The notes beneath the pieces are model-generated. The model saw only the letters and a program-made list of their open reading frames with translations. It had not been told where the DNA came from and did not search any database. The translations under genes and the position numbers were made by a program. This document shows, piece by piece, positions 3,278 through 62,387 of a DNA stretch of 64,000 bases. Where the stretch lies: assembly GCA_963790805.1 (NCBI GenBank), contig CAWBPL010000002.1, forward strand, positions 256,696-320,695. Reading direction: 5' to 3'. Positions within the stretch are counted from its first letter, which is position 1. Each line of letters starts with the position of its first letter. This DNA is from Candidatus Gottesmanbacteria bacterium. Lineage in GTDB: Bacteria; Patescibacteriota; Microgenomatia; UBA10105; UBA927.

Positions 3278-3305
3278 ATTATATGTCCTTATTGACAAGG
3301 GTCAA
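3278..3305 (-). promoter_or_regulatory. sigma70-type promoter, leaderless, for the kinase gene
   Basis: Read on the minus strand: TTGACC (3305-3300), 16-nt spacer, TATAAT (3283-3278), 6 nt, ATG (3271-3269). Confidence 0.6.
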
Positions 3306-3320
3306 TATGAGAATAATAAT
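3292..3320 (+). promoter_or_regulatory. sigma70-type promoter, leaderless, for phosphoribosyltransferase 1
   Basis: TTGACA (3292-3297), 16/17-nt spacer, TAATAAT (3314-3320), 5-6 nt, ATG 3326. Its -35 box forms the inverted repeat TTGACAAGGGTCAA with the opposing promoter. Confidence 0.6.
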
Positions 3321-3325
3321 GGGCT

Positions 3326-3904
3326 ATGGCAATCGAGTATCTCCCTGTTTCATGGGAAGAATATCATACACTCGCCCAACGCCTCGCCCAAAAACTCCTT
3401 TCTGATAACGTGCATATTGATGAAATTGTCGCAATTTCGCGGGGCGGCCTCGCGCTTGGACATTTGCTTACCGACTTTCTTCGGGTACCGATTTCCACGT
3501 TTACTATTCAAAGTTACAACAATTATTTAACTCAGGGACAAGTAAAAATCACAAAGCCGCTCACCACTCCCATTCATGACAAGCAAATTCTCTTGGTTGA
3601 TGACGTATCCGATACTGGCAAAACGCTTATTCGGGCGCTTGAATACCTCAAGGCACAACAACCGAAAAACGTAACGACGCTTACACTCTTTTATAAACCG
3701 CAGTCTATCTACAAACCCGACTACTTTGCCAAAACGACGCCGGACTGGATCATATTTCCCTATGAGGTGACCGAAACAATCATTACCCTTTTTAGGGCGA
3801 TGAAGAAAGAAAAAAAGTCTACCAAGGAAATCCAGACGTTTTTGGAAAGCCTTCATTTCTCAAAAAATCAAATCGCCTTCACGAAAAAATTCTACCTGAA
3901 ATAA
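3326..3904 (+). CDS. type I purine phosphoribosyltransferase (xanthine/guanine/hypoxanthine PRT-like)
   Basis: PRPP-binding loop ILLVDDVSDTGKTL. N-terminus resembles Gpt-type PRTs (VSWEEYHTLAQRLAQKL...ISRGGL). Confidence 0.7.
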   Translation: MAIEYLPVSWEEYHTLAQRLAQKLLSDNVHIDEIVAISRGGLALGHLLTDFLRVPISTFTIQSYNNYLTQGQVKITKPLTTPIHDKQILLVDDVSDTGKTLIRALEYLKAQQPKNVTTLTLFYKPQSIYKPDYFAKTTPDWIIFPYEVTETIITLFRAMKKEKKSTKEIQTFLESLHFSKNQIAFTKKFYLK

Positions 3905-3947
3905 CTCCCCTCTTGACGATTTCCCGCTTGTTTTGTATAAAGAGGGT

Positions 3948-3976
3948 AATAGGGCTTAGGAAGCGCCCTATTTTTT
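3948..3976 (+). terminator. rho-independent terminator after phosphoribosyltransferase 1
   Basis: 8-bp stem AATAGGGC (3948-3955) / GCCCTATT (3965-3972), 9-nt loop, then TTTTG. Confidence 0.6.
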
Positions 3977-4315
3977 GTGGGAAAAAAGGCATGTTTATGT
4001 ATGATAAAAGAGCTCAGAATTTACTATGACGCACATGGAGGTGGAACCCCACCCTCAGGCTCGGATGGTACAGATGATAAAAAAGACGAATCAAGCGAAA
4101 CTCCAGTTCCACCTGCAAGCCAACGCCATAACGTAGGTTTGAGTATCTGGACGGGCGCGGGTAGACAGGAAAATAATTCGAAAGTCGAATATGTATCAGG
4201 CGATATCAGTGTTGGTCTGTTTAAAACTCTATTTGTTCGCGTTGGAGAGGATGTCCAACATGAAGATAAAGGTGATACAAATTCAAGTAATACAAGCGCT
4301 ACAGGACATAAGTAA
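3977..4315 (+). CDS. orphan ORF, acidic low-complexity hypothetical protein (doubtful)
   Basis: 112 codons (GTG start; first in-frame ATG at 4001). No SD, no convincing promoter, no recognisable domain. An antisense frame of similar length is also open. Confidence 0.3.
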   Translation: MGKKACLCMIKELRIYYDAHGGGTPPSGSDGTDDKKDESSETPVPPASQRHNVGLSIWTGAGRQENNSKVEYVSGDISVGLFKTLFVRVGEDVQHEDKGDTNSSNTSATGHK

Positions 4316-4322: not shown

Positions 4323-4351
4323 TTTGCAAAAACCGTAGATATTGTTAAAAT
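4323..4351 (+). promoter_or_regulatory. sigma70-type promoter (extended -10), leaderless, for the PRT2-guaA-guaB-PNP operon
   Basis: TTTGCA (4323-4328), 17-nt spacer, TGtTAAAAT (4343-4351), 5 nt, ATG 4357. Confidence 0.6.
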
Positions 4352-4356
4352 AGCGT

Positions 4357-4977
4357 ATGGCGGCTAACAACCTTCAATCTGAGCTTGCCTACCTCAAAAG
4401 TGAGTTTTTGCGTGATGCAAAAGTCATTGACGTTGAGCGCGGATATATTTCCATCTCCTCATTTAACCTACGCATGAAACCGCACGTATTAAAAAGCGCA
4501 GCGCTTCTTATTGCCAATGAATTTAAAAATGAACGTATCGATATCGTCCACGGCATACCTCATTCGGGAAACTATCTCGCTACCGCGGTTGCCTTAGAGC
4601 TTGACGACAAAGTCCGGCTCCATGCCTCGCGCAAAGATCAAAATATTCCGACATCTTGGAAAGACGTCTACCGCGCCGAGGTCCGCTCGTTTACCACAAG
4701 CTCGGGCGGAGCAACGGTATTTTCCGGCATCAATCTTTCGTTTGTACAAAAGGGCGACCGCGTGCTTCTTGTCGATGACGTCTGCGCGACCGGCGAAAGC
4801 GGCTACCATATAGTCAGCGGTCTTCAAAAACGCGGCGTGACGGTTGTAGGCTATGCCGTTTTGTTTGACAAAATATTTCAGGGCGGGCTTGAATATGTTG
4901 CTTCGTTGGGAATCAAAGTGTTTTCCTGCGTTCGGGTTGAAAAAATCGGTAAAGGTGATAATGTAACTCTATTATGA
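4357..4977 (+). CDS. type I phosphoribosyltransferase (adenine/purine PRT-like)
   Basis: PRPP loop VLLVDDVCATGESG. ATGA overlap with guaA at 4974-4977. Confidence 0.65.
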   Translation: MAANNLQSELAYLKSEFLRDAKVIDVERGYISISSFNLRMKPHVLKSAALLIANEFKNERIDIVHGIPHSGNYLATAVALELDDKVRLHASRKDQNIPTSWKDVYRAEVRSFTTSSGGATVFSGINLSFVQKGDRVLLVDDVCATGESGYHIVSGLQKRGVTVVGYAVLFDKIFQGGLEYVASLGIKVFSCVRVEKIGKGDNVTLL

Positions 4978-8841: not shown

Positions 8842-10375
8842 TTTCAAAATAATTATTTCGTGCAGGACCAGTGGTCACGGCAGCAATTGGAACGGCAAGC
8901 CGTCGTTGAATAAACGCTAAAAACTTTTTTGCATTTTCCGGTAATTGTTTAAACGTATGTGCCTGTCGTACATCAGTCCCATTCCAACCCGGCAACTCAA
9001 CATACTGCGGAATAACGTCAACAAGATATGCAAGTCCCGATTGATACGGAACATAGTTGCCATGTTTATCTACGTAATGCGTACAAACCTTTACAGGGAT
9101 GTCCTCCCATGCAATATCCAGATGAGTTCCAGCCAAAAGCTCTATCCCAGACATTCTGATATTGTATGCTAGCATCGCGAGGTCAAGATGGAGAATATCG
9201 CGAGGACGCCCGGTCGTCGTACCGTATTCGTGTGCTTCATCCCGCACTCGTCTTGCCCAATCATTATCTGCTTCGGTCGGCATATGTCGAGCACCTACAC
9301 TTGATGTATAAGGCACTTTAAAAACACCTATACGCTCCCCTATGTCGCTTGCTTTCCAAAAACCGGTACCGGTTTGAATGCCATAGACCGATGTATCGGA
9401 AGCGGTAATATCAGGAAGCGTCCCCAGCCATGCATGAAGTCCCAACGCCTGCGCGCCCTCGAATAATATTCCCTGCGACACATCTTCGTACATTTTTCTG
9501 TGGAGAAGATACGTGTTACAGACCATTTTTCGGTAGATCAATTCGTTTCTTGCTTTTGCCAACCGCTGTAAATATTTTTCTTTTGATCCCACAGATCGCT
9601 TTTGTTCTTTTTTTGTCTTTTTCGTTCTTATAAAATCCGGCACTTCAACATCAGAAAGTTTTAAACCATACAGATGAAATTCTTGATCATACCGGTCATA
9701 TTGGAGCGCCAATTGTTGTTTCCATTCTTTATCCATTAAATCAGCTATATGAAAACCCAATCGATCGTAATGATGCGCATAGGATGGACCGATTCCTCTT
9801 CCCGTTCCGCCTCCCGCTTTTCCCTGCCGTTTCCGATTCAGCAATTCTTCTGCGCGGTCCAAATCGGTATTAAGTACTGCATCATTTGATAAAAATAACT
9901 TTCCTTTTACCGAACCAGTCGCTTCTTCAACAATGTGAATTTCGTCGACAAGATCACTTGGATTTATTGTCATTCCCCGATCCATGATACAGGTTGTATT
10001 TTTATACATGACGCCGCAGGGAATTTGATGAAGAGCCAAATGAACATTATGCACCTCTACCGTATGACCAGAATTATTTCCTCCCTGAAAACGCACAACG
10101 GTAACTCCTTTTATTTTCTGGTTTGAAAAAAATGAACCGATTTTATTATCAATAATCCGACCTTTTCCTTCATCACCCAATGCTGCACCCACCACACACC
10201 CTGTATTTGGTCGTGCAACTGCATGAACTGTTTTAGAACTATTTTTCTTCATGCCGACGGAAATGCTATTTCGTTTATAAATATCTTCGAGGTCTTTTTT
10301 ACTATCCCGCTCAGGATGGAGAAAACGGTTCGTCCGTTCACGATTCAAAAATGCTCCGTATTTTCGCGGCATCAT
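8831..10375 (-). CDS. purA: adenylosuccinate synthetase with N-terminal extension and internal basic insertion
   Basis: GDEGKGRIID, QGGNNSGHTV, TGRGIGPSY, TTTGRPR motifs. Start uncertain: TTG at 10438 (track), ATG-ATG at 10375/10372, or ATG at 10252. Confidence 0.85.
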   Translation of the reverse strand: MMPRKYGAFLNRERTNRFLHPERDSKKDLEDIYKRNSISVGMKKNSSKTVHAVARPNTGCVVGAALGDEGKGRIIDNKIGSFFSNQKIKGVTVVRFQGGNNSGHTVEVHNVHLALHQIPCGVMYKNTTCIMDRGMTINPSDLVDEIHIVEEATGSVKGKLFLSNDAVLNTDLDRAEELLNRKRQGKAGGGTGRGIGPSYAHHYDRLGFHIADLMDKEWKQQLALQYDRYDQEFHLYGLKLSDVEVPDFIRTKKTKKEQKRSVGSKEKYLQRLAKARNELIYRKMVCNTYLLHRKMYEDVSQGILFEGAQALGLHAWLGTLPDITASDTSVYGIQTGTGFWKASDIGERIGVFKVPYTSSVGARHMPTEADNDWARRVRDEAHEYGTTTGRPRDILHLDLAMLAYNIRMSGIELLAGTHLDIAWEDIPVKVCTHYVDKHGNYVPYQSGLAYLVDVIPQYVELPGWNGTDVRQAHTFKQLPENAKKFLAFIQRRLAVPIAAVTTGPARNNYFEIIF

Positions 10376-10408
10376 AAAGTATAGAGAGGCAGAATATAAG
10401 ACGAACCA

Positions 10409-10438
10409 ACTATAAAGCGAAGAAAACCACTTTGTCAA
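10409..10438 (-). promoter_or_regulatory. sigma70-type promoter upstream of purA
   Basis: Minus strand: TTGACA (10438-10433), 18-nt spacer, TATAGT (10414-10409). The -35 box contains the TTG that the ORF track used as the start codon. Confidence 0.45.
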
Positions 10439-10447: not shown

Positions 10448-11935
10448 TTACTGTGGCTCGTTGATAATAACGGGTTTGAGACGACTGAGTGCTTCAAGAG
10501 CATAATGCCCTCCTTGCACGCCGACTCCGGATTGTTTAACGCCTAAAAATGGAAAGTGATCCGGCCCGCGCTGCGGAGAACTATTAACCTGAACAGTTCC
10601 GACGTTTAATAAACCCGCATATTTCATCCCTGTTCCTTCATCAGTCGTAAACACACATGCCTGCAAACCGAACCGCTGACTGTTGACGATACGCGCCGCT
10701 TCATCCATATCGTTAATCGTGATAAATGAAATCACCGGTCCGAATACTTCGGTCGAAACGATCTTCATCGTGGGTTTGACGTTCGTCAAAATGGTCGGTT
10801 CGATAAATGCATCTTTCCTGTGACCGCCAAGAGCTATCGTTGCTCCCTCCGCTACCGCTTGGTTAATCGCCTGCTCTATTCCCTCTGCTGCTTTTACCGA
10901 GATAACGGGACCAGCCATCTTAGTCTCAGGGTCTCGGGGGTCACCCACATGGACAAGCGTTTTCATCTGTTCCACAACGGCAGGAAAAAGCTTGTCGAGT
11001 ACGCTCTGGAATCCCATGACATATTTAATTGCCGTGCACCGTTGCCCAGCAAACGAAAATCCTCCGCGAATAATTTCTTTCGCCGTAAGCGTCATATCGG
11101 CATCAGGAAAAACAATAGCCGCATTATTGCCGCCGCATTCAAACATGAGTGGTTTCATTGGCGCTTTACCGGCAATCGCCATTCCTGTATCGGAACTTCC
11201 TGTAAATGCAATCATATTAATCTTTGGATGCGATACAAGATAATCACCGATCTCGCTGCCGAGACCTGTCACGCATGTGAGGACTCCTTCGGGAACCCCT
11301 GCTTTTTCAAAAATACGGGTTAAATATAAACCGCTTATGCCTCCTACAGTCGGAGGTTTGAAAACAACGGCGTTACCCATAAGAAGGGCCGGAGCAATTT
11401 TACTTCCCGCCAAATTCACCGGATAGTTAAATGGTGCGATTGCAAGCACAACGCCTTGTGCAACCCGAGAAACGATTGCTGTTTTTCCTTTCGGATATCC
11501 CGGAAAATTATCGCTTTCCAATGTTTCGCCACGGATTGACTGCACCTCATCGGCGAAATAATCAGTAAACTCTGCCGTTCTTTTAATTTCACTCTTACTC
11601 TCTCCGACCGGTTTGCCAACCTCCCGTGTTAATAACTCAATAAGTTGATCCTGATAGTGAGTGATCCAATCTGCAGCCAGATGAATAATTTTTACCCGCT
11701 CGTTAAGCGGTGTTGCTTCCCATTTCTTTTGGGCAATAACCGCTGTATTAACCACTTCGTCAATTTCTTCCTTAGTCACTGATTGCAATTCACCAACAAC
11801 GGATCCGTCAATTGGAGATGTTATGGTAATTCGTTTACCGCTTTTACTTTCTATCCAGTCTTTCCCGTTGAAGTATCGATAGATGGGAGGAGTTCCGTTA
11901 TTGCTGATTGGTTCAAAGAAATTATCGGCAGGCAT
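10448..11935 (-). CDS. gapN: non-phosphorylating glyceraldehyde-3-phosphate dehydrogenase (ALDH superfamily)
   Basis: FECGGNNAAIVFPDADMTLTAKEIIRGGFSFAGQRCTAIKYV matches the GapN catalytic Glu/Cys region. Start at MPADNFF, supported by the leaderless promoter. Confidence 0.8.
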   Translation of the reverse strand: MPADNFFEPISNNGTPPIYRYFNGKDWIESKSGKRITITSPIDGSVVGELQSVTKEEIDEVVNTAVIAQKKWEATPLNERVKIIHLAADWITHYQDQLIELLTREVGKPVGESKSEIKRTAEFTDYFADEVQSIRGETLESDNFPGYPKGKTAIVSRVAQGVVLAIAPFNYPVNLAGSKIAPALLMGNAVVFKPPTVGGISGLYLTRIFEKAGVPEGVLTCVTGLGSEIGDYLVSHPKINMIAFTGSSDTGMAIAGKAPMKPLMFECGGNNAAIVFPDADMTLTAKEIIRGGFSFAGQRCTAIKYVMGFQSVLDKLFPAVVEQMKTLVHVGDPRDPETKMAGPVISVKAAEGIEQAINQAVAEGATIALGGHRKDAFIEPTILTNVKPTMKIVSTEVFGPVISFITINDMDEAARIVNSQRFGLQACVFTTDEGTGMKYAGLLNVGTVQVNSSPQRGPDHFPFLGVKQSGVGVQGGHYALEALSRLKPVIINEPQ

Positions 11936-11941
11936 GCATCT

Positions 11942-11971
11942 AGTATAAAACCATAGGGAAGGAAATGTAAA
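11942..11971 (-). promoter_or_regulatory. sigma70-type promoter, leaderless, for gapN
   Basis: Minus strand: TTTACA (11971-11966), 18-nt spacer, TATACT (11947-11942), 6 nt, ATG (11935). Confidence 0.55.
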
Positions 11972-12713: not shown

Positions 12714-13333
12714 GAAGTCATAGCAAGGATAAAACGCCTCTCCACTTCCCTCCAATGTACCACATTCCACCATGCTTTAATGTAATCTACCCGCATATTT
12801 TGATATTTCAAATAATACGCGTGTTCCCATACATCAAGCGCCAATATCGGCGTCTTCCCCTCTGTCAGCGGGCTGTCCTGATTCGGTGTATCTATAATTG
12901 AAAGTTTTTTACTATCAATCACAAGCCAAGCCCATCCGCTTCCAAATCTGCCCATAGCCACCGCCGAAAATTTTTCCTGAAATTGGGTAAATCCGCCAAA
13001 CGTTGCATCAATCACATTGGCTAATTCTCCCTGCGGCCTGCCTGTCGAAGCCTTGGCCGAGGCGGGCGTCATAACCTGCCAAAAGAAACTATGGTTTGCG
13101 TGCCCTCCCGCATTATTTCGAACTTTAGTCCGGATCGATTCAGGAACACCCGACACCTGAGCCACCAATGTATCAACTTGCATTGATAGAAATTTATCCA
13201 TTCCAACCAGTACATCATTCAGATTTTTCACATACGCTGCATGATGCTTATCATGATGTATTTGCATCGTACGCTCGTCAATGTACGGTTCAAGCGCGTT
13301 ATATGCGTATGGTAAATTTGGTAACGTAAACAT
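12710..13333 (-). CDS. sodA: Fe/Mn superoxide dismutase
   Basis: [33 protein letters not shown]. Start at the internal ATG, preceded by AAAGGAGG 5 nt upstream. The 49-codon N-terminal extension in the track is rejected. Confidence 0.9.
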
Positions 13334-13435
13334 GTATCCTCCTTTGTAATATAAATCACATTCTATATCTATTATACACAATAGGTCTATAACAATCATA
13401 TTCAGGAGTTTTGATTTCTTGTATAATGAACGCAC

Positions 13436-15664
13436 ATGTTTGCTCACATTAAAAATTTCTGGAAAAAGCACGTTCAACACAAAGTCAAAGTAAGCAATAA
13501 GACTGCTAAAACAATGCGTTGGGCGTTTTGGTTACTGCCATTATCCTTCATAGTATTAAGCTATCTGTTAATCTTTAAAGACCTACCGTCTCCCTCCAAA
13601 CTCGGACAATATAACGTACCCTTAGCCACTAAAATTTACGACCGGAACGGCAAACTCATTTTTGACATTTTCGCGGATCAAAACAGAACCGCGGTACCGC
13701 TTTCTCAAATCCCGAAATATCTTCAGGAAGCTACTATTTCGATCGAAGATAAAGATTTTTATAAGCATCAGGGTATTGATCCGGTCGGTGGAGTACTGCG
13801 GGCCATGACGGCCATGATCAAAGGTCAAAACCTCCAAGGGGGATCAACAATTACGCAGCAGTTGGTTAAATCAGAACTTCTTTCTCCTGAGCGAACGATC
13901 ACCCGAAAAATTCGGGAGGCGATTCTCGCGGTCTGGGTCGAATTTTTGTATCCGAAAGATAAAATTCTGGAAATGTATCTCAATGAAGTGCCGTATGGGG
14001 GTACTGCGTGGGGTGTCGAATCTGCGGCAGAACGATATTTCGGAAAAAATGTAAAAGATTTAACACTCGCTGAGGCATCCCTTCTTGCGGGGCTTCCGCA
14101 GGCTCCAACATCATATTCGCCATTCGGCGCTCATCCTGAATACGCAAAAGAGCGCCAAAAAGAAGTGCTTCACAGGATGGTCGAAGATCACTATATTACC
14201 CAGCAACAAGCTGACGACGCATACGCTCAACCTCTGATTTATAAAAAAGAAACAGGGCTGAAGGCTGGTCACTTCGTTATGTATGTCAAAGACTTGTTGG
14301 TCCAACAATACGGCGAGGCGCTTGTTGAACGGGGCGGTCTGAAAGTCACAACAACCCTTGATCTTGATCTTCAGGAATACGCTCAGGCGACGGTCGCGGC
14401 CGAAGTAGCAAAGCTTAAATCATATAATGTCGGCAATGGCGCGGCTCTCATCACCAAACCGGCAACAGGAGAAATACTTGCGATGGTGGGTAGCACCGAT
14501 TATTTTGCATCTCCGTCAGGAAGCTACAATGTGACTATCGCTCTTCGTCAACCCGGTTCCTCAATTAAACCCATCAATTATGCCATCGGACTGGAAAATC
14601 ATATCGTAACTCCGGCAACGATGTTTTTGGATGAACCGACGTGCTTTCAAATTACCGATCAACCGCTCTATTGTCCGCAAAATTATGACAATAAATTCCA
14701 CGGTCCCGAACAGCTTCGGTTTGCGCTTGGGAATTCATTTAATATTCCAGCGGTAAAAATGCTGAAATTAAATTCTGTTCAAACAATGGTTGCCTCAGCC
14801 TCCGCATTCGGGTTAACCACTATCACTGATTCATCAAAATACGGCTTATCACTCACGTTGGGCGGCGGCGAGGTACATATGACCGATATGGCCGAAGCAT
14901 ATGGGGTATTTGCAAATGCAGGAATTCGTAAAGATCTCGTATCAATTCTGAAGGTCGTGGATAAAAATGGAAAAATTCTTGAAGAATATAAAGACCCAAA
15001 CTTGAATAAAGACCTTCCGTCTCAGCTTCTTCTTCAGGGCACTCGCGTCATATCGCCGGAAACCGCATTTCTTATCTCACACATTCTTCTTGATAACAAT
15101 GCACGTATGACCGAATTTGGGCCGGATTCCGAGCTTGTTGTTCCCGGACATGCCGTCTCAGTTAAAACCGGCACAACAAATGATTTCCGCGACAACTGGA
15201 CCATCGGGTTTACTCCGCAATATCTTGTCGCTACATGGGTCGGAAATAACGACAATACTCCCATGAATTCTGCGCTCGTTTCAGGAATCACGGGGGCCGC
15301 CCCCATTTGGAATAAACTTATGGCAGAAGTCTTAAAAGGAAAACCCGATCTATGGCCGAATCAACCGGATGGCATAGTGGGAGCCCGCATATGTTCTCTT
15401 TCTGGGCTTCTCCCGCCGAACCCAAGTGATCAGGGAGACCCCGGGTGTCCAATCCGTTTTGAATACTTTATTAAAGGTACAGTTCCAACTCAACGGGAAC
15501 AACTAAACCAAAGTGTACTTATCGATAAATCCACAGGCGACATTGCGGCACCGGATAAAACAGATAATGTTGAGCCACAAACACATCAAGTACTCTCAGA
15601 CGGACTCACCACGTGGTGTCTTGATTGTCAGCACCCAGCAAATACACCGGCGATCGTAAAATAA
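13436..15664 (+). CDS. class A penicillin-binding protein (glycosyltransferase + transpeptidase), copy 1
   Basis: GT51 motifs [10 protein letters not shown] and GGSTITQQL. Transpeptidase motifs SSIK, SFN, KTGTTND. N-terminal TM anchor. TATAAT (13422-13427) lies 8 nt before the ATG. Confidence 0.9.
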
Positions 15665-18357: not shown

Positions 18358-18843
18358 TTATCGAGTAACGGTCACTGCGCCTTTATCAACAGCGTTTAAT
18401 TGATTATGATATCGCCACGTTCCGATTGTTACAAACGTATATTCATACGTCTGACCATTTCCTACGGGAAGTTGCTCATTAAATCCTGATAATACCAATC
18501 GAGAACTATCAAGACTCATTTGCATATTTCGACTGGAATTATTGACGAATGTAACAATTGAACCGGATTTAATAGTTACAGATGCTGGGGCAAATCCATT
18601 ATCCGTATAGATGATAACCGTCCGAGCCTTCACCCCCCCTTTTTCGAGTTGTTCTCCTGTCGTTGAAGTAAACGGTACACTACCCCCTCCTTTATAGCTG
18701 CTTGTAGGCGTCAAGGTAACACCGGGAAATCCTTGACCACCTGTTTTCTGCTGATTACTGACCGGTTGCGCCCGAAAAACAAAAATAACGACAATTGCTA
18801 AGGCAGCCAAAACGAGAAAACCAAAAAATATTTTATTATTCAT
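18358..18843 (-). CDS. membrane-anchored cupredoxin-like protein with degenerate copper site
   Basis: N-terminal TM helix. C-terminal VTIKSGSIVTFVNNS...TWRYHNQLN..KGAVTV resembles a plastocyanin-type fold but has no Cys. SD GGGAGGTG lies 7 nt upstream. Confidence 0.5.
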   Translation of the reverse strand: MNNKIFFGFLVLAALAIVVIFVFRAQPVSNQQKTGGQGFPGVTLTPTSSYKGGGSVPFTSTTGEQLEKGGVKARTVIIYTDNGFAPASVTIKSGSIVTFVNNSSRNMQMSLDSSRLVLSGFNEQLPVGNGQTYEYTFVTIGTWRYHNQLNAVDKGAVTVTR

Positions 18844-18878
18844 ACTATTTCACCTCCCTTCAACAACAAATCAGGCAG

Positions 18879-19349
18879 TCACGTATATCGATCGGCCACT
18901 TTACTTGCTGCATAGCTATCCGGCTTCGTTTTTACCTGATAACCGCTTCCAACAATCATACCGACTATTTCCTGAATCATCTCCCGCGTATCGCCATGAG
19001 TGCCTATATCGACATGTATTTCTATGTCATATTTAGTAATACCGTCATTTTTTAACAGTGATATTACCGTCTCGGCGGTATCAAGTGATATCGTAGCCTC
19101 TTCATACATCCGCTGCCGAAGTACGTAATGCTTTTTATGTACCGTTCTTCGCCAAAAATAAATTCCGCCCGTACCGAGACAGTGAACAACAATTGCGGTA
19201 ACAAAATCAACGCCTGACCCGTTATGGGGCTGTGAATCCGTACCGACAACAATCTGATATTTCTTCCCCGGTTCTTTTGCAAGAAACGTAAGTATTTTTT
19301 CTCGAACCTGCCCAAGCGCAAGTTCTCCATACGTCGGACTTTGAAACAT
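18879..19349 (-). CDS. YkuK/DUF458 family RNase H-like protein
   Basis: MFQSPTYGEL...QIVVGTDSQ N-terminal signature of the YkuK family (from memory). Confidence 0.6.
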   Translation of the reverse strand: MFQSPTYGELALGQVREKILTFLAKEPGKKYQIVVGTDSQPHNGSGVDFVTAIVVHCLGTGGIYFWRRTVHKKHYVLRQRMYEEATISLDTAETVISLLKNDGITKYDIEIHVDIGTHGDTREMIQEIVGMIVGSGYQVKTKPDSYAASKVADRYT

Positions 19350-19394
19350 ACGAGTGGTATGGTATCAAAGCTCGCCGATTGTCGCAACTGAATC

Positions 19395-19449: not shown

Positions 19450-19716
19450 TTACTTTTGTGGTCGCTCTTCTCGCGGCCGTGCTTCATTGACGACCAATGG
19501 GCGTCCATCAATATCTTTACCATTGAACATCTCGATCGCTTTCTTCGCTTCTTCATCAGACGACATTTCGACGAAGCCAAAACCTCGTGATCGTCCGGAA
19601 TATTTATCCGCAATCACCTTCGCAGAAACGACGGTACCTGCTTGCGCGAATACCTCTTCGAGACGCTTGCTATCCATTGTATACGGGAGATTCCCGACAA
19701 ATAGATTAGTTGCCAT
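19450..19716 (-). CDS. RRM-type RNA-binding protein
   Basis: RNP2 NLFVGNL and RNP1 RGFGFVEM. SD AAAGGAG lies 7 nt upstream. Confidence 0.9.
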   Translation of the reverse strand: MATNLFVGNLPYTMDSKRLEEVFAQAGTVVSAKVIADKYSGRSRGFGFVEMSSDEEAKKAIEMFNGKDIDGRPLVVNEARPREERPQK

Positions 19717-19829
19717 ATAAAACTCCTTTCTCCCTTAGGACTTAAAGGGGACGCCTAAAGAGAAAGTCAGAAGAGGAACTTCTTTATCTCGAAGGACGAA
19801 CACCACACTTTTTTCCTAGGTCAATGATA

Positions 19830-19978: not shown

Positions 19979-20437
19979 TTACCGAGTGACCGAAATGACC
20001 GCATTCAATTCTGCTGCCGGAGCAGTTACGGTAAGTCGATTATCCGCTGCGCTTCGAACGATCGTATAGTTCGTGTTATACGCTGCGGCACAGTTTGTGA
20101 CCGGAGTTCCGTTGTTCGTCAATGGATCTACCGGAAGTGCTGCAAGATATTGCGTCACCAATGACGCACAGATATCAGCGCCAGTGTTACTTACTGTTTG
20201 CGCTGCAGTCGTAATACCGGTAGGCAACGTTCCTTTATTGTCGGCTGCATACTGACCGACGGCGTTCAATATGGCGTTTACGTCACTTGATCGCTTTGTA
20301 TTGTTTGCCTGCGAGAATTGTCTTGCAGGATTTATGGCGATCAATGTAATTGCCAACAGTACCGCCAAGATACCGATGACAACCAATAACTCGATGAGCG
20401 TAAAACCACGACGCTCGGCGGGCAGATAGTGTTTCAT
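19979..20437 (-). CDS. pilA: type IV major pilin
   Basis: Class III signal MKHYLPAERRG|FTLIELLVVIGILAVLLAI with Glu at +5. C-terminal Cys pair. Has its own promoter and a strong terminator. Confidence 0.85.
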   Translation of the reverse strand: MKHYLPAERRGFTLIELLVVIGILAVLLAITLIAINPARQFSQANNTKRSSDVNAILNAVGQYAADNKGTLPTGITTAAQTVSNTGADICASLVTQYLAALPVDPLTNNGTPVTNCAAAYNTNYTIVRSAADNRLTVTAPAAELNAVISVTR

Positions 20438-20445
20438 ATACTTTA

Positions 20446-20475
20446 ACCGTATCGTAAGAGTGAGATGGTTGTCAA
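20446..20475 (-). promoter_or_regulatory. sigma70-type promoter, leaderless, for the major pilin
   Basis: Minus strand: TTGACA (20475-20470), 18-nt spacer, TACGGT (20451-20446), 8 nt, ATG (20437). The -10 box is weak. Confidence 0.45.
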
Positions 20476-39600: not shown

Positions 39601-39631
39601 TTCGATTTACGCTTTCATGTACAATACAGGT

Positions 39632-42888: not shown

Positions 42889-42962
42889 ATATTCAGTATA
42901 CCAAATTATTTTTTCGATCGAAGGGTTGTGATATGAGAAACAATCGCGGTACAATAAAATCC

Positions 42963-43628
42963 ATGTCCAAAGGTCCGTTGCTTCTTGCTGGTTCAGGAGA
43001 ATTCACCGATGCGATGATTGACGTCGATCGCTTCTTTCTTCGGACCATCAAGAATCCGGTCGTCGCCATTGTTCCCACCGCGGCAGGTCAGGAACCTGAT
43101 TGGTGGAAATGGGCAGAAAATGGTGTTGCCCATTATAAAAAACTCGACATCCCCGCCTTCGGCGTCCGATTACAAACCAAGGAAGATGCCAATTTGCCAT
43201 CTATTATCGATGAACTAAACAGCGCAAATGTCTATTATTTCTCTGGTGGTGATCCGAGATATGTGCTTTCGGTGATCAATAATTCCGCAGCATGGAAAAC
43301 AATCTATTCACGGTTTCAAAACGGCAGTGCGCTCGCGGGAAGCTCGGCTGGCGCCATGTTTTTGGGATCATGGATACCCTCCAATATTAAAGAGTCGCTC
43401 GAGCACGGAAAAAGAGCGACATGGATTAAAGCATTGAATCTTGTTCCCTACATTATCTGGCCGCATTTCGACTGGGGGTTTCGGATGTTCGGCAATAAAA
43501 TTACAACACTCATGGAAGAAGGGCAAAAAAAATCTCCTTGGCTCGGCATTGACGAAGATACTGCAGTCATCTGGAAAAGTACAGACAAACCCCTCGTTAT
43601 GGGTCAGGGAAAAGCACATACTGGTTAA
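42963..43628 (+). CDS. peptidase S51 / cyanophycinase-like (type 1 glutamine-amidotransferase-like) protein
   Basis: LLLAGSGEF, YFSGGDPRY, nucleophile elbow GSSAGAMFLG. Start at MSKGP, supported by TTGTGA-18-TACAAT-7-ATG. Confidence 0.65.
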   Translation: MSKGPLLLAGSGEFTDAMIDVDRFFLRTIKNPVVAIVPTAAGQEPDWWKWAENGVAHYKKLDIPAFGVRLQTKEDANLPSIIDELNSANVYYFSGGDPRYVLSVINNSAAWKTIYSRFQNGSALAGSSAGAMFLGSWIPSNIKESLEHGKRATWIKALNLVPYIIWPHFDWGFRMFGNKITTLMEEGQKKSPWLGIDEDTAVIWKSTDKPLVMGQGKAHTG

Positions 43629-47573: not shown

Positions 47574-47927
47574 TTATCCAACACTCACGCCATCAGGGAC
47601 TTCTTTTTCCGGCATGGCCAATACAGGAATAATATCGTTTGCGTATCCGATGTCAAAAAGCATTCCCTCTGAGAGTTCCCCCATCATTTCCTTCGGTTCT
47701 AGATTAACGACAAACAAGGCTTGTTTTCCCTCAATCTCCTTGGGATCTTTTCTCTCTTTTTTCAATCCAACAAGAATATGTCTTTTAAAATCTCCAAAAT
47801 TCACCGTTAATCTCACAAGTTTATCTGATTTTTCGACATCCTCAACTTTTTCTATTCTCCCGACGCGGATATCGAGTTTATCTAGATCATTAAATTGAAT
47901 GGTCGGTTTAATCGGTAGAAGCTTCAT
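47574..47927 (-). CDS. tRNA-binding domain protein (CsaA/Trbp111-like)
   Basis: F..LDIRVGRIEKVEDVEKSDKLVRLTVNFGD...V.NL.P..MMGE.S.GML. Confidence 0.8.
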   Translation of the reverse strand: MKLLPIKPTIQFNDLDKLDIRVGRIEKVEDVEKSDKLVRLTVNFGDFKRHILVGLKKERKDPKEIEGKQALFVVNLEPKEMMGELSEGMLFDIGYANDIIPVLAMPEKEVPDGVSVG

Positions 47928-47957
47928 GTCGCCATCATCATATCACGTTTGTGAACT

Positions 47958-51303: not shown

Positions 51304-51490
51304 ACGTACCGAGGCAGTTTCGTGAGTTTATGTTGCAATACCAAACGTCTTCCCGTGCTACGATACCCCAAACTTCTTCTTCTTGTCAACTTTATGTTAT
51401 TCGAAATACATCCCACCTATCAAAATCAGCATCATAACGTGTTTTGCGCTTCCCGCCAGAAAAAAGCAGCTAGTAGTATAATTTAACTAT

Positions 51491-51874
51491 ATGGAAACAA
51501 GCAGTAACGACGTAAAAGTTGTGAATATCAATGAAAAGCTTTCCCTTTTTAACAAATATTGGGATCCGAAAATCGTGGGCGGGCTTAATAACCATAAAGT
51601 TCAGGTTGTAAAATTAAAAGGAGAATTCGTCTGGCATCATCATGACAATGAAGATGAATTATTTTTAGTCATTAAAGGACAATTAATCATTCACTTCCGT
51701 GATCGCGACGTAATTATAAACGAAGGCGAATTTGTCATCATCCCACATCCGATCGAACACAAACCGGAGGCAAAAGAAGAAGTTCACATTGTACTTATCG
51801 AACCTAAAGAGACACTAAATACGGGAAACGTCACAGATTCCAAACTCACTGCGAAAAATCAAGAAAATATTTAA
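51491..51874 (+). CDS. cupin domain protein
   Basis: FVWHHHDNEDELFLVIKGQL...GEFVIIPHPIEHKP. TATAAT (51477-51482) lies 8 nt before the ATG. Confidence 0.75.
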   Translation: METSSNDVKVVNINEKLSLFNKYWDPKIVGGLNNHKVQVVKLKGEFVWHHHDNEDELFLVIKGQLIIHFRDRDVIINEGEFVIIPHPIEHKPEAKEEVHIVLIEPKETLNTGNVTDSKLTAKNQENI

Positions 51875-53009: not shown

Positions 53010-53372
53010 TTATTTTTCGACTTGTTGGAGTTTCGTTTGTGACCGCGTCACGGAGATGTGAGTGAAATCGCCGTCAGAACCGGCGCCGTGCCAGTGAGTT
53101 TCGCCTTTGGGCACCCATATGATGTCGCCTTCGGACACATATTCTTCTTTTTCTTTCGTCGCGACGATCCCCTTTCCCTTGGTAACAATTAAGACCTGAT
53201 CGGTTGAATGCGTATGGAATTTATTGCGCACACCTTCAGGAAAATGAACGTAAGTAATCGATATATCTGCCGCATCAACGTCGGCAAATGGTAATTGCAT
53301 GGCAACGTCTCCGGTAAAAAGCGGCGAACCGTTTTTCGTCGGTTTCACGTTGTTGAGGTGAACAACTTTCAT
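53010..53372 (-). CDS. cupin domain protein
   Basis: FHTHSTDQVLIVTKGKGIV...GDIIWVPKGETHWHGA. Confidence 0.8.
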   Translation of the reverse strand: MKVVHLNNVKPTKNGSPLFTGDVAMQLPFADVDAADISITYVHFPEGVRNKFHTHSTDQVLIVTKGKGIVATKEKEEYVSEGDIIWVPKGETHWHGAGSDGDFTHISVTRSQTKLQQVEK

Positions 53373-53376
53373 GTGG

Positions 53377-53754
53377 CTATTGTATCAAACCCGTTTCTTT
53401 TTTTCTCCACCCGACAAGGACGGGCAATACAAAGGTGAGAAGATAATAGAAATACACATCAATTTTGTAGTAGCCGGTTGTAGGTTTCAGGAGCTTCACG
53501 ATAAAAAGATAATCAAAAACGACGGCAATGAGTGTCCAAATGACACTCATGCCAACGTAACACTGAAATTTATTCCGTTTAATCTTTTTCAGTAATACCC
53601 ACAATGTCGCGGCAACGCCAAACGGCATGATATACCACCCGATAAGCGCATAGGGCACGAACATAAAAAACACGAATCCCAGCACGTACCCGAAAAACCA
53701 CAGCACTACGCCCCACAAAACGGTATTGAGAAATAATTTTGCTTGTTTATTCAT
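53377..53754 (-). CDS. membrane protein, unknown function
   Basis: 125 aa with four hydrophobic helices. No motif recognised. Confidence 0.5.
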   Translation of the reverse strand: MNKQAKLFLNTVLWGVVLWFFGYVLGFVFFMFVPYALIGWYIMPFGVAATLWVLLKKIKRNKFQCYVGMSVIWTLIAVVFDYLFIVKLLKPTTGYYKIDVYFYYLLTFVLPVLVGWRKKETGLIQ

Positions 53755-53809
53755 GCCATCAGTGTAAACGCACGAACAAACACGTGCAGTAATGCACCAT
53801 ACAAATGGA

Positions 53810-58046: not shown

Positions 58047-59165
58047 TTATGGGTAACTTCTATCTAAATAACTCCCAAGCACTTTTAAAACCTGTGGCAT
58101 ATTTTCTCTACCAAAGCCCAATCGAAAGTGCGTATCATCATAATTGTATACTGTCGATGGCAAAAGCATCACGTTGGCTTCTTTCACAACTTTTTGACAA
58201 AAATCCAAAGCATGCATTTCACCTTTGAGTTTTGGAAAACCGATTGTTCCTGCCTTCGGCTTAACCCATTCAAACATATCCGAGTGCTTTTCAAAAAAAC
58301 CATCGAGCAGTATCAAATTCCTTTTAATTCTTGCTATATGTTTATCAATGATTTTGTCTTTTGCACGTAGTGCAATGATCGATAACACTTCGCTTGGAGC
58401 ACTGCTGCAAATTGTCGTATAGTCTTTAAATATCATCATTTTTTCATATACGTCCGTATCTTTTGTCACAACCCATCCAATTCGTGCTCCTGCCATGCCG
58501 AAGGTTTTTGACATACCAAAGAGCGATATTGCCCTCTCATACTCCTCACACGCCGAAGGCAACCTGTCATTCGCGTCATATTCTAAAAACCGATACATCT
58601 CATCGGAAAATAGGAAGAGAGTATGTTTTTTCGCCAAATCGATAATTCTTTTATAATCCTCTTTGCTCGGCAAATAACCGGTTGGATTATGAGGAAAATT
58701 CACGATAACGAGTTTCGTATTCGGTTTGATATTTTGCTCAAGAAAATCCGGATTAAATCTCCATCCGTTTTCTTCTTCCGGCTCCCATTTTGTAACTTCG
58801 CAGCCTAAACCTTCGGCAATTTCATATAACGATTGGTATCCGGGAAACATACAAATAACGTGGTCTCCCGCCTGCAAAATGGAGTTAAGAGTAATAAATA
58901 TTCCTTCTTCCGGCGTAACAATAAGTACATTGTTTGGATCAATATGTGTATATAACTTGGCAACTTCCTTTCGTAACAAGGGATTCCCTAACGACTCTGT
59001 GTACCCCAATGGTAATTGTTCCCACACGTTTTTCATCTCTTCATCCGCCATATCTACTAGTTCTTTTTGAAGTAATCCGTCGCAATCAGAACTCGAAAGG
59101 AGATATTTAGCGGAAAATTCGTATTGGGCAAAATATCGCTCTAGTTTAAAAGGCTTCACATGCAT
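58047..59165 (-). CDS. class I/II PLP-dependent aminotransferase
   Basis: FKLERYFAQYEFSAKYLLSSSDC, NFPHNPTG, SKTFGMAGARIGW. TGaTAGAAT lies 6 nt before the ATG. Confidence 0.8.
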   Translation of the reverse strand: MHVKPFKLERYFAQYEFSAKYLLSSSDCDGLLQKELVDMADEEMKNVWEQLPLGYTESLGNPLLRKEVAKLYTHIDPNNVLIVTPEEGIFITLNSILQAGDHVICMFPGYQSLYEIAEGLGCEVTKWEPEEENGWRFNPDFLEQNIKPNTKLVIVNFPHNPTGYLPSKEDYKRIIDLAKKHTLFLFSDEMYRFLEYDANDRLPSACEEYERAISLFGMSKTFGMAGARIGWVVTKDTDVYEKMMIFKDYTTICSSAPSEVLSIIALRAKDKIIDKHIARIKRNLILLDGFFEKHSDMFEWVKPKAGTIGFPKLKGEMHALDFCQKVVKEANVMLLPSTVYNYDDTHFRLGFGRENMPQVLKVLGSYLDRSYP

Positions 59166-59256
59166 ACCAATATTCTATCACGGAAAGAAAGGTTGATTGT
59201 ATGCTCCAAAATATTGGACTTCGCGAAACAAACGGTGTTTGAACAGACATTGGGTG

Positions 59257-59925: not shown

Positions 59926-59934
59926 ATTGTTGCT

Positions 59935-61158
59935 TTATCCCCAAATTGACTTAAGAATATCCTCCCGTGCGACAAGCCATGCGGGGATACGCCCCGCAAG
60001 ATACCCTGCCACAATAAAACTTGCGATACTTAAAAAAATTCCGAGCGGCGAAAAAATCAGAATCAAATTCATAAGTCCCTGAATAATCGGTATGGGATGA
60101 GAAATGAGAAGCGGCTGCAAGATAAAAAATACGATAACGACACCCAACGTAACTCCGCACAGAGTGTAAAAAAGGGACTGAAAAATGTAGGCATTAATGA
60201 TAATGCTTTCTTTTATACCTATGGCTTTGAGTATTCCGATCTGGCGTCTCTTATTTATCGCGTTAACATAGATAAGGACAAAAATGGTTACCGTGGCAAC
60301 GACAACACTGATGACACCCACAACGGCAGAAATAAGATCCAGCGCCGTTAAAAATGAGGCGAATGATGCGATGAGATCATTATAGTTCTGCACTTTAAGA
60401 TTGGGTTGCATTTCCTTAATTTTTGATTCATAACTAGCTACCGGGGTATTTGTTGTATCGGTTTTTACTAAAATCTGGCTCGCGCTGTTATAGACGGAAA
60501 GTACTGATTCCGCTTCTTTTGCCGAAATAAATGTTTCATAGATACCCATGAGATCGTTATAGATTCCCTTAACCGTATAGGTCCTCATCACGCCATTGGA
60601 GTACGTAATTTGTACTTTGTCCCCAACCTTCACACCTCCTAAATCGTTGGGTGCCACCTCACCGTACCCGCCGGCAAGCGCCGCGCTCATAACTATTTGA
60701 TCCGTATCCGTATCCGATAGAAATTGTCCTTTCATTAAAAGCTTGTTAAAGGTAAGAACAGCATTTTCATCTGATGGGTCAAATCCGATGATCGTCCCTG
60801 ACACGCTTTTATATTGACCGTTTTTATCCTTATCAAATACGAGCGATCCGGCAAGCAAATAATGCCGGGTGGTTGCGATAACGCCAGGGATACTCGCTAT
60901 TTCTGCGCGGACTTCATTTTGATTGAGGATGAACTGTTTGTGCACCGGCAACTCCTGCGGACTTATCGCTAAGTCTGAGCTTAAGAAATTTTTTAACGCC
61001 TGCACTTCGCTGTATGAGATACCGGTAAGCACTCCCGAAATAAACATCATGTTAAAAAAACTCAGGAACAAAATGAAAATAAGAAGGATAAGCATGGATC
61101 TGCTGCCTTTGCGGATAGACTTATATGCTATAAAAATTGCGGTACGTAAATCGTTCAT
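59935..61158 (-). CDS. FtsX/MacB-type ABC permease
   Basis: TM1, a large extracytoplasmic domain, then three C-terminal TM helices with the FtsX-type KAIGIKE loop. Confidence 0.85.
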   Translation of the reverse strand: MNDLRTAIFIAYKSIRKGSRSMLILLIFILFLSFFNMMFISGVLTGISYSEVQALKNFLSSDLAISPQELPVHKQFILNQNEVRAEIASIPGVIATTRHYLLAGSLVFDKDKNGQYKSVSGTIIGFDPSDENAVLTFNKLLMKGQFLSDTDTDQIVMSAALAGGYGEVAPNDLGGVKVGDKVQITYSNGVMRTYTVKGIYNDLMGIYETFISAKEAESVLSVYNSASQILVKTDTTNTPVASYESKIKEMQPNLKVQNYNDLIASFASFLTALDLISAVVGVISVVVATVTIFVLIYVNAINKRRQIGILKAIGIKESIIINAYIFQSLFYTLCGVTLGVVIVFFILQPLLISHPIPIIQGLMNLILIFSPLGIFLSIASFIVAGYLAGRIPAWLVAREDILKSIWG

Positions 61159-61160
61159 TT

Positions 61161-62351
61161 CTAATTCGGCACAATAATTTTGTCTCCCAAAGATAAACCA
61201 CGAAGCACTTCGGTCTTCGTCAGACCTTTAACTCCCAGCTCCACACGGGTAAGATTTGTGGCACTTGCTCCAGCTTTCTGAATATACGGTATACCATTCT
61301 TTTCAATTATCGCGTTGTTTGGAATAATCAACACATTCTCCCTGCGTGCTGTCTCTATAGTTGCGGAGGCAGTCATGTTCGGCATAACATCGGCTGAAAT
61401 ATTGTTCACTTCAATACCAACCATATAATCAGTTGTTCCCTGTGTTTTTGTCCCAACAGTATCCAGACTCTGAACTTTACCGGTAAACGTTTGACTTGGG
61501 AGCGCATCAAAAACAATCGTTACCTTCTGTCCAATTTTGATTCTCGGTATGTTCACCTGATCGACGGATGCCGTGAAAACAGGATTGCTGAAGTCTGAAA
61601 TCACCAAAACAGGCGGTATGACTCCTGCTGCTTGTCCCGATTGAGTTTGAGCCGCAATTGAAGTTTGAACGGATTGAACTTGATCGCCAACCTGTTTTTG
61701 AAAATTGACAACAGTACCCACGGCAGGTGCGTGAACAGTAATACTTTGTGTCGCGTTGTAGGCAAGCTGCGCGCTTGTAAGCGATGCCTGATCCTTGGCG
61801 ATAACCGCCTGCTGGTTTTTGTAGTTTGCCTCCGCAGCAAGCCAGTCGTCCTGCGCGGTGGTAAAAGGGGTAAGAATTCGGTTACTTGTATTCGGACTAC
61901 TGTCGGAATTCTGATATGTGGAATTCTCCGCTATATCCGTATACACTTTCCACGCGCCGAACATGGCAGACTGTAAACTATATAGGGCCGCTTGATCCGT
62001 ACCAAGCGCCGATGAAGCGGTAAGGTAGTTTGCATACGCGGCAGCTTTTTCTTCTTCTGTTGCTGTGCTTTCAATATACAACAGAGGATCTCCCTTTTTT
62101 ACCTCAATCCCGTTCTTTACATACACCTTCGTGATGATTCCATCGGCCGGAGAATTAACCGGAACCTGTGAGGCCGTGGTATATATGCCGTTTATTAAAA
62201 GCGTATTGACTATCGTCCCCTGCACAACAGTATAGACAGTGTCATTCTTGGAAGGCCGGAAGAGAAAAAGGCAAAGAAGAACAACGAGAACAATTGCAGT
62301 AATAATTGCAAGTATCTTTTTCGCTTGTATGAATGCCAAAAAACTGCCCAT
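61161..62351 (-). CDS. HlyD/MacA/YknX-type membrane fusion (adaptor) protein
   Basis: N-terminal TM helix, lipoyl-like GIITKVYVKNGIEVKKGDPLL, coiled-coil, beta-barrel HAPAVGTV..., IKIGQKVTIVFDA. Start at MGSFLAF, supported by TTGTCG-18-TACGAT-6-ATG. Confidence 0.8.
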   Translation of the reverse strand: MGSFLAFIQAKKILAIITAIVLVVLLCLFLFRPSKNDTVYTVVQGTIVNTLLINGIYTTASQVPVNSPADGIITKVYVKNGIEVKKGDPLLYIESTATEEEKAAAYANYLTASSALGTDQAALYSLQSAMFGAWKVYTDIAENSTYQNSDSSPNTSNRILTPFTTAQDDWLAAEANYKNQQAVIAKDQASLTSAQLAYNATQSITVHAPAVGTVVNFQKQVGDQVQSVQTSIAAQTQSGQAAGVIPPVLVISDFSNPVFTASVDQVNIPRIKIGQKVTIVFDALPSQTFTGKVQSLDTVGTKTQGTTDYMVGIEVNNISADVMPNMTASATIETARRENVLIIPNNAIIEKNGIPYIQKAGASATNLTRVELGVKGLTKTEVLRGLSLGDKIIVPN

Positions 62352-62357
62352 ACATTT

Positions 62358-62387
62358 ATCGTACTCTTTTCTCTCAGAATACGACAA
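62358..62387 (-). promoter_or_regulatory. sigma70-type promoter, leaderless, for the MFP-permease-ATPase operon
   Basis: Minus strand: TTGTCG (62387-62382), 18-nt spacer, TACGAT (62363-62358), 6 nt, ATG (62351). Confidence 0.5.

Follow-up and report, generated by a model that had tools for sequence, protein, structure and literature searches.

A -10 box set against the start codon suggests leaderless or near-leaderless transcription in a Microgenomates bacterium

The DNA considered here, referred to as the window, is a stretch of 64,000 nucleotides (nt) from contig CAWBPL010000002.1 (assembly GCA_963790805.1). It has a GC content of 43%, and its host is a small-genome bacterium of the Microgenomates, in the candidate phyla radiation (CPR, Patescibacteria), close to Candidatus Gottesmanbacteria. 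The feature in question is a promoter layout that recurs along the window, in which a hexamer resembling the bacterial -10 box TATAAT ends 5-9 nt before the ATG of a gene, without a Shine-Dalgarno (SD) sequence. An earlier reading made from the letters of the DNA only, called here the sequence-only reading, had described this layout at about 17 genes and interpreted it as a sign of leaderless transcription. The 50 nt upstream of each of these starts were read, and all 17 layouts are present base for base. About ten further cases of the same layout were found among the candidate starts of 70 long non-overlapping open reading frames (ORFs), and the count is nearer 23-27 than 17.

The window, its relatives and the controls

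The window proteins that were looked up in the public protein collection all sit on one contig of 1,222,826 bp, each of them a singleton at 90% identity. The closest named homologues of its GuaA, with 70-80% identity, belong to a Patescibacteria group bacterium, Candidatus Gottesmanbacteria, and Candidatus Levyibacteriota. Five relative loci around GuaA homologues, with GuaA proteins 71-78% identical, were used for comparison: L082 (GCA_035510735.1), L083 (GCA_040960095.1), L084 (ERZ25039513), and L165 and L166, which come from Candidatus Gottesmanbacteria assemblies. The synteny between these five relatives and the window covers the divergent kinase and phosphoribosyltransferase (PRT1) genes, PRT2, guaA, gapN, PP2C, the divergent sodA and PBP1 genes, PBP2, and the genes for a cupredoxin, an RNaseH_like (ykuK-like) protein, and an RRM protein. 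An extra relative, L085 (GuaA identity of 67%), was obtained from a metagenome scan with GuaA and added in some counts. By-products of the same scan were reused as controls; these are 21 low-GC loci of unrelated bacteria, with 193 genes, GuaA identities of 44-58%, and an upstream AT content of 0.69, compared with 0.653 in the window.

A -10 box at a set distance from the start

The curated set comprises 27 genes whose box carries A at position 2 and T at position 6, shows at least four of six matches, and lies at 5-9 nt. The spacer between box and start is 5 nt in three genes, 6 nt in 12, 7 nt in two, 8 nt in six, and 9 nt in four, a distribution counted before the start of purA was corrected, with the total remaining at 27. 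The layout is found at 23 of the 48 genes that stand first in their transcription unit, compared with four of the 21 operon-internal genes (p=0.03). About 47% of the first-in-unit genes in the window have the layout, which lies above the threshold of at least 25% for group C of GeneMarkS-2. An SD core of at least 5 nt, located 3-13 nt from the start, was found at none of the 27 layout genes, in line with the lack of SD sequences that the sequence-only reading had noted for its cases.

The sequence-only reading had also proposed a comparison of the motif TAnnnT with shuffled controls, which was run on the genes of the window. A blind rule was applied, under which each of 69 long ORFs was assigned its first ATG as the start, regardless of the upstream sequence, and the null was given by 1000 rounds of dinucleotide shuffles of positions -30 to -1, with the motif required to end 5-9 nt before the start. 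TAnnnT is enriched, occurring at 24 of the 69 genes versus 11.3±3.0 in the shuffles, and a strict motif with at least five of six matches to TATAAT occurs at 14 genes versus 4.1±1.9; none of the 1000 shuffles reached either count. The strict motif was found by the same blind pipeline at 21.5% of the window genes versus a local background of 7.2%, and at 5.7% of the control genes versus 6.0% (window versus controls, Fisher p=5e-4). As the AT-richer controls show no enrichment under the same pipeline, the signal cannot be put down to AT content or to the ORF rule.

The boxes are accompanied by further promoter elements. The TG of an extended -10 element, one base upstream of the box, is present at nine of the 27 boxes versus a background of 6.7% (p=4e-5), and a TTG of a -35 box at 16-18 nt is present at ten versus 6.4% (p=4e-6), the background in both cases being all such hexamers in the window. 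One or the other accompanies 15 of the 27 boxes. Strong extended -10 boxes mostly occur without a good -35 box, and vice versa, and known sigma-70 promoters show the same trade-off. The occurrence of TG and TTG at the correct spacing argues that the boxes are promoters and not a translation motif. Full promoters with at least ten of 12 matches, located up to 100 nt upstream of a gene start, number seven in the window. In four of them (PRT1, kinase, gene 912, and gapN) the distance to the start is 5-6 nt, while the other three (purA, gene 51303, and the LUD gene) give leaders of 36-56 nt.

Conservation in the relatives

The box holds its place in the orthologues of several genes. PRT1 has a -10 box 5 nt before the ATG in six of six genomes, and the kinase gene has TATAAT or TAGAAT at 6 nt in five of six. 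The box of PRT2 lies at 5 nt in all three genomes (TGaTATAAT-5 in L082, TAAGAT-5 in L165), that of gapN at 6-7 nt in all four (TATACT or TATGAT in the orthologues), and that of PBP1 at 5-8 nt in all four, the orthologues including TATAAT-7 and TGaTATAAT-6. The RNaseH_like gene of L084 carries TGgTATAAT-9. In ungapped stacks anchored at the ATG, identity of at least 80% is reached by the columns of the -10 hexamer, the ATG, and the first codons; in the PRT1 stack four further columns, in the shared -35 region, do so as well. Elsewhere the upstream DNA of the orthologues has diverged, with the box keeping its distance. This arrangement of a promoter against the start is under selection.

The database gene calls of the five relatives give the layout at 35 of 93 genes overall and at 23 of 51 first-in-unit genes. 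The TG extension is present in nine of these 35, and the mode of the spacer is 6 nt (12 of 35). Under the blind first-ATG rule, the relatives together with L085 show the strict motif at 26.9% of genes versus 5.7% in the controls (p=9e-7). Since the layout recurs in the relatives, it is a trait of the lineage and not of the window alone.

Start codons and gene annotation

Many of the layout genes have an in-frame stop no more than five codons upstream of the ATG, and in seven of ten proteins scanned (PRT1, gapN, ridA, NUDIX, S51 peptidase, RNaseH_like, and kinase) the Pfam profile begins at model position 1-4 within residues 6-27, so that a downstream start would truncate the domain. Position 1 of the profile is aligned at residue 9 in PRT1 (Pribosyltran), at residue 6 in the S51 peptidase (Peptidase_S51), and at residue 14 in the RNaseH_like protein; position 2 is aligned at residue 8 in ridA and position 4 at residue 10 in NUDIX, and the Aldedh profile begins at residue 27 of gapN. 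Ten of ten proteins looked up are present in the public collection with exactly these N-termini. An exact match to the gapN product of 495 amino acids (aa; start 11935) was absent from the public protein collection, which indicates that the database gene caller chose another start. In three relatives the orthologue has 494 aa and takes the ATG behind the box as its start, as does the kinase in four of five relatives. The starts of these orthologues support the earlier claim that N-terminal extensions in the ORF track are wrong, as corrected for gapN and kinase.

The TTG or GTG offered as a start is really part of the promoter in gapN, kinase, MFP (a membrane-fusion protein of an ABC efflux system), purA, and S51 peptidase. 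The TTG at 62387, the MFP start in the mechanical ORF call, was rejected, being the -35 box. The TTG at 10438 was likewise tried as a leaderless start of purA (TAAGAT-6) and rejected, because it belongs to the TTGACA-18-TATAGT promoter as its -35 box; L082 shows the same TATAGT and ATGCCG. Where a gene caller or an ORF track presupposes an SD sequence, starts in these genomes are misplaced. The proteomes of CPR bacteria derive almost entirely from automatic calls on metagenome-assembled genomes.

Shine-Dalgarno genes, leadered genes and the base before the start

The use of SD sequences is low overall. A core of at least 5 nt precedes 12 of the 69 genes versus 4.6±2.0 in shuffles, that is, 12 of the 42 genes outside the layout set, and the strong ones are canonical AAAGGAGG. 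The five SD genes cited in the sequence-only reading, which presumed them to be highly expressed (sodA, RRM, the cupredoxin-like gene, the LUD gene, and the 79-aa gene), are present as described there; besides the LUD gene, genes 54199 and 50007 also carry a canonical SD. The SD of sodA, AAAGGAG(G), is found in the window and in two of the three relatives with the gene (L083 and L084), and for a DUF5667 gene an SD-like GGAG/GAGG core is found in all five relatives, not in the window. Canonical SDs in a minority of genes imply a normal anti-SD in the 16S gene, which lies outside the window.

The leader of purA has no SD, indicating that leadered genes can also be SD-less here. Neither an SD nor a -10 box was found at 14 of the 21 operon-internal genes (for example, 4974, 6494, 7963, 22098, 24536, 24990, 35107, 59925, and 61158). 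Many operon-internal starts overlap the upstream stop or lie no more than 20 nt from it, and the SD-less ones are likely translated by termination-reinitiation coupling with the upstream gene. Eight first-in-unit genes outside the layout set (926, 15783, 28512, 28868, 37318, 43701, 47473, and 55856) have a TATAAT-like box 10-25 nt upstream and no SD, which suggests very short SD-less leaders of about 4-18 nt.

The base before the start is a pyrimidine in 63 of the 69 window genes (T in 45 and C in 18, with A in six and G in none) and in 89% of 58 database-called genes in L082-L084, compared with 60% in the low-GC controls from outside the CPR and 55% at internal in-frame ATGs. Because this bias is alike in leaderless-type, SD, and operon-internal genes, selection of the transcription start site (TSS) alone is insufficient to account for it. 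A U at -1 might pair with A37 of the initiator tRNA, which would be one translational reason for the bias.

Individual genes and other features

The layout cases and the contrasting genes are compiled in Table 1. The weakest of the cases cited earlier is pilA, whose TACGGT has three of six matches and falls below the threshold of four in the curated set. The promoter of the 120-aa gene is an internal one, located within the 3' end of the upstream gene. In the divergent pair of kinase and PRT1, the palindrome TTGACAAGGGTCAA (3292-3305) is common to both promoters and supplies the -35 box on either strand. Its TTGAC-N4-GTCAA form is conserved in L082, L083, and L166, and the palindrome could also be an operator for a regulator of these nucleotide-salvage genes.

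Table 1. Promoter layouts and contrasting genes in the window. Coordinates span the promoter or SD through the start codon; layouts are written as -35 box-spacer--10 box-distance to start.
Gene	Coordinates	Strand	Layout or signal
gene 912 (additional case)	910..948	-	TTGACA-18-TATAGT-6-GTG; 11/12 consensus matches
gene 2609 (additional case)	2607..2621	-	TAGACT-6-ATG
kinase (AAA_18/cytidylate-kinase-like)	3269..3305	-	TTGACC-16-TATAAT-6-ATG
PRT1 (phosphoribosyltransferase)	3292..3328	+	TTGACA-17-AATAAT-5-ATG; 11/12 consensus matches
PRT2	4323..4359	+	TTTGCA-17-TGtTAAAAT-5-ATG
purA-like (leadered contrast)	10370..10438	-	TTGACA-18-TATAGT about 30 nt upstream of ATG 10375/10372; no SD
gapN (aldehyde dehydrogenase)	11933..11971	-	TTTACA-18-TATACT-6-ATG; start 11935, not GTG 11980
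sodA (leadered contrast)	13331..13345	-	SD AAAGGAGG 4 nt before ATG
PBP copy 1 (PBP1)	13422..13438	+	TATAAT-8-ATG
cupredoxin-like (contrast)	18841..18857	-	SD GGAGGTGA
RNaseH_like (ykuK-like)	19347..19387	-	TTGCGA-17-TGaTACCAT-9-ATG
RRM RNA-binding protein (contrast)	19714..19729	-	SD AAAGGAG
pilA	20435..20475	-	TTGACA-18-TACGGT-8-ATG; perfect -35, weak -10
pilB	27732..27751	-	TGtTATTAT-8-ATG; extended -10
ridA	35479..35517	-	TTGCGA-17-TAAGAT-7-ATG
NRAMP	35571..35608	+	TTGTCT-17-TGtTAAAAT-6-ATG; ORF opens at ATG itself
79-aa gene (contrast)	37016..37032	+	SD AAAGGAGG
ABC exporter	37772..37791	+	TGaGATAAT-8-ATG
ATP-grasp, RimK/GSH-S-like (additional case)	39620..39634	+	TACAAT-6-ATG; database gene call has same start
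NUDIX	40938..40954	-	TATACT-8-ATG
membrane protein	42886..42903	-	TGgTATACT-6-ATG
S51 peptidase	42926..42965	+	TTGTGA-18-TACAAT-7-ATG
117-aa gene (additional case)	47925..47945	-	TGaTATGAT-9-ATG
cupin	51477..51493	+	TATAAT-8-ATG
120-aa gene, 53372 (additional case)	53370..53387	-	TGaTACAAT-6-ATG
125-aa gene (additional case)	53752..53766	-	TACACT-6-ATG
aminotransferase	59163..59180	-	TGaTAGAAT-6-ATG
MFP (membrane-fusion protein)	62349..62387	-	TTGTCG-18-TACGAT-6-ATG
weaker additional cases	starts 12773, 7963, 51880, 63420		

Several other observations concern the window and the loci collected with it. The NRAMP homologues found in the contig scan have only 55-62% identity and belong to unrelated phyla (Acidobacteriota, Planctomycetota, and Ktedonobacteria), so that NRAMP has evidently been horizontally transferred. 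In the high-GC loci around these homologues (L002-L081, mostly Acidobacteriota and Planctomycetota), -10-like hexamers peak moderately at 6-9 nt, with the strict motif at 5% of genes versus a background of 1.5% in the same pipeline, which hints at appreciable leaderless transcription in those phyla as well. Within the window, the GC content dips to 0.37 at 56001-60000 and to 0.39 at 1-4000, versus about 0.44 elsewhere, and the gene at 56-58 kb (656 aa, GTG start, membrane-like) may be a recent acquisition. The strongest terminator-like hairpin of the first 20 kb (19927-19956, 11 pairs, seven of them G-C, followed by a T run) was called on the + strand, just below the stop of pilA, which is on the - strand and ends at 19979. 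A tRNA scan and an Rfam scan of the whole window gave no match. Among the relatives, the ribonucleotide reductase of L083 (2165-5677, 1170 aa) contains an intein with a LAGLIDADG endonuclease domain, and its orthologues in other relatives have about 800-825 aa, without an intein.

Leaderless transcription and its alternatives

According to TSS data from 49 bacteria and mutagenesis in E. coli, transcription begins at the 7th-8th base past the -10 box, and the TSS is centred on the element Y-1 R+1 Y+2; in the same work, E. coli RNA polymerase was assayed for TSS placement over bases 4-10 after the box (PMC12641261). As 24 of the 27 layout genes read (C/T)ATG and match this element, the TSS is expected to fall on the A of the start codon. 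The layout, seen at about 47% of the first-in-unit genes, is best explained by their leaderless or near-leaderless transcription, with a probability of roughly 0.8, and the enrichment, the promoter hallmarks, the absence of SD sequences, and the conserved starts all speak for the interpretation first offered in the sequence-only reading. In about half of the transcription units, 5-9 nt (most often 6) separate the -10 hexamer from the ATG; RNA polymerase, starting at the 7th-8th base past the box with its preference for Y-R-Y, would thus begin at the A of (C/T)ATG. The resulting mRNA would lack an SD, and its 5' leader would be absent or 1-3 nt long; a ribosome carrying the initiator tRNA would take the leaderless route and bind the 5'-terminal AUG. 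About 10-17% of genes, a minority, would keep a canonical SD on a normal leader, and most operon-internal genes, with neither signal, would probably be translated by coupling to the upstream gene.

Several points weigh against leaderless transcription as an explanation of every case. The TSS positions are deduced from the DNA, and spacers of 8-9 nt in ten of the 27 genes may result in leaders of 1-3 nt rather than none. Roughly ten of the 27 boxes are expected by chance under the loose rule. Four to five boxes precede operon-internal genes, as do 12 of the 35 in the relatives, which requires either internal promoters in the upstream coding sequence or chance matches. In purA a distal full promoter coexists with a proximal TATACT, and extra upstream promoters could give leadered isoforms at layout genes too. 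The pyrimidine at -1 is just as frequent without the layout (39 of 42 genes), for which reason it was rejected as a marker of leaderless genes.

One alternative explanation is that AT-rich upstream DNA, the in-frame TAA or TAG that bounds an ORF, and hand-picking together place TAnnnT near starts. The loose motif is indeed expected at about 11 of 69 genes, and it can be reasoned that in-frame stops could seed hexamers at spacers of 0, 3, 6, and 9 nt. In addition, the promoter-like sites in 1-20 kb total 47, not above the 43.1±7.0 of shuffles, so that this total was discarded as evidence and only the position and quality of the sites were considered informative. However, the shuffles never matched the observed count, the controls carry the same stop-codon bias with more AT and yet show no enrichment, and chance would have to produce both the co-occurrence of TG and -35 elements and a box position conserved in the orthologues of six genomes; this explanation is thus very improbable. 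Equally little credit can be given to the view that the starts are wrong and that the real ones lie downstream, with ordinary leaders and ribosome binding sites (RBS), the ATG beside the box being incidental. The starts are predicted, and the database caller did pick a different one for gapN. Against this stand the Pfam domains, which in seven of ten proteins start 6-27 residues past the chosen ATG, the next in-frame start codons, which lie well inside the domains, and the first codons, which are conserved across genomes (MAI/MAV in PRT1, MFQ in ykuK, and MP/MS in gapN).

A different proposal accepts both boxes and starts and takes the TA-rich hexamer as a translation signal independent of SD, or as an unstructured AT-rich landing site for ribosomes on a leadered mRNA, similar to group B of the Bacteroidota, with the TSS further upstream. 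It would accommodate the motif before internal genes (four of 21 in the window, 12 of 42 in the relatives), the low overall use of SD, and a -1 pyrimidine context common to all genes. It would not lead one to expect TTG at 16-18 nt or TG at -15/-14, nor a consensus of TATAAT with invariant A2 and T6, and the motif is commoner at the heads of transcription units, with most internal genes doing without it. The group B pattern, with the same motif before first and internal genes, within the leader and without a promoter, was not found in the window, and the proposal is considered improbable. The nearest alternative differs from leaderless transcription in degree. The promoters might fire 6-7 nt past the -10 box regardless of the ATG, leaving leaders of 1-4 nt at genes with spacers of 8-10 nt; such transcripts would be leaderless-like, though not mRNAs with a 5'-terminal AUG. 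The ten spacers of 8-9 nt are in line with it, as are TATAAT-like boxes at 10-11 nt at 37318, 43701, and 47473, and boxes at 9-12 nt before NrdR of the relatives. On the other side, the mode of 6 nt, shared by 12 of the 27 window genes and 12 of the 35 in the relatives, puts the 7th base on the A, and the ATG, with the base before it, supplies Y-A-T, the triplet preferred as start element. Most studies by differential RNA sequencing class leaders of up to 5 nt as leaderless. Very short leaders in place of strict leaderlessness are regarded as rather unlikely, and transcription that starts at or next to the AUG is preferred.

Meaning for CPR genomes

The Microgenomates, and perhaps the CPR more widely, might represent a third large bacterial clade with leaderless initiation as a default, in about half of the transcription units, after Actinobacteria and Deinococcus-Thermus. 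Translation would be largely independent of SD sequences, as suggested by the SD-less state of most operon-internal genes and by the pyrimidine that precedes about 90% of starts, and could be tied to the reduced ribosome. This extension is tentative and somewhat short of even odds. In CPR ribosomes, uL30 has been lost in all CPR and bL9 in most Microgenomates, bS1 is shortened to 3-4 domains in most CPR, and the anti-SD has been lost in part of the Parcubacteria; the study makes no mention of leaderless mRNAs (PMC9297842).

If the extension holds, CPR bacteria with their stripped-down ribosomes would offer a natural test of the components needed for leaderless or SD-independent initiation, and a data point for the debate on whether leaderless initiation is ancestral. 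Saccharibacteria, another CPR phylum, are now genetically tractable. If such tools reach the Microgenomates, an expression cassette would consist of a consensus -10 box 6 nt before (C/T)ATG, with no RBS. The main value of the layout lies in the annotation of start codons in CPR genomes and in the lead that it provides on initiation by reduced ribosomes.

Comparison with known systems

The architecture as such is already known, and what may be new is the lineage, the Microgenomates and the CPR. Full-text literature searches found no paper that links leaderless mRNAs with CPR, Patescibacteria, or Saccharibacteria, which is not proof of novelty, and no report of TSSs for Microgenomates. GeneMarkS-2 is part of the annotation pipeline at NCBI, where these genomes may already be handled as group C.

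In group C, the first gene of an operon has its Pribnow box 6-8 nt from the start, and leaderless operons make up 25-50% of the total; the group is common among Actinobacteria (90%) and Deinococcus-Thermus (97%) but seldom seen among Proteobacteria and Firmicutes (PMC6028130). The window resembles its members, such as Deinococcus deserti, Mycobacterium tuberculosis and M. smegmatis, Streptomyces, and Corynebacterium, in having a Pribnow box near the first gene's start without an SD, in a share of a quarter to half or more of the operons, and in starting with AUG, rarely GUG. It differs in its lineage, which is CPR/Microgenomates instead of Actinobacteria or Deinococcus-Thermus, and in being known from sequence alone. 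It also differs in that the genome has 43% GC and its box is near the consensus TATAAT, often with the TG of an extended -10. Moreover, the other genes of group C are modelled with an RBS, whereas the remaining genes of the window are mostly SD-less too.

The archaeal group D (Haloferax, Sulfolobus) likewise has a promoter element at a fixed distance, and most of its mRNAs begin at or next to the AUG. The archaeal TATA box, however, lies 22-26 nt upstream and is served by other basal machinery, while the window has the bacterial -35, extended -10, and -10 elements (PMC6028130). Group B of the Bacteroidota shares with the window a low use of SD sequences genome-wide, but its motif occurs in the leader of all genes, internal ones included, and is no promoter (PMC6028130). 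Finally, the Y-1R+1Y+2 start element described by Kuo et al. in 2025 (PMC12641261) agrees with the (C/T)-A-T found at the ATG 6-10 bases after the -10 box. Unlike the element as described, it would coincide here with the start codon, and its -1 pyrimidine may have a second, translational cause.

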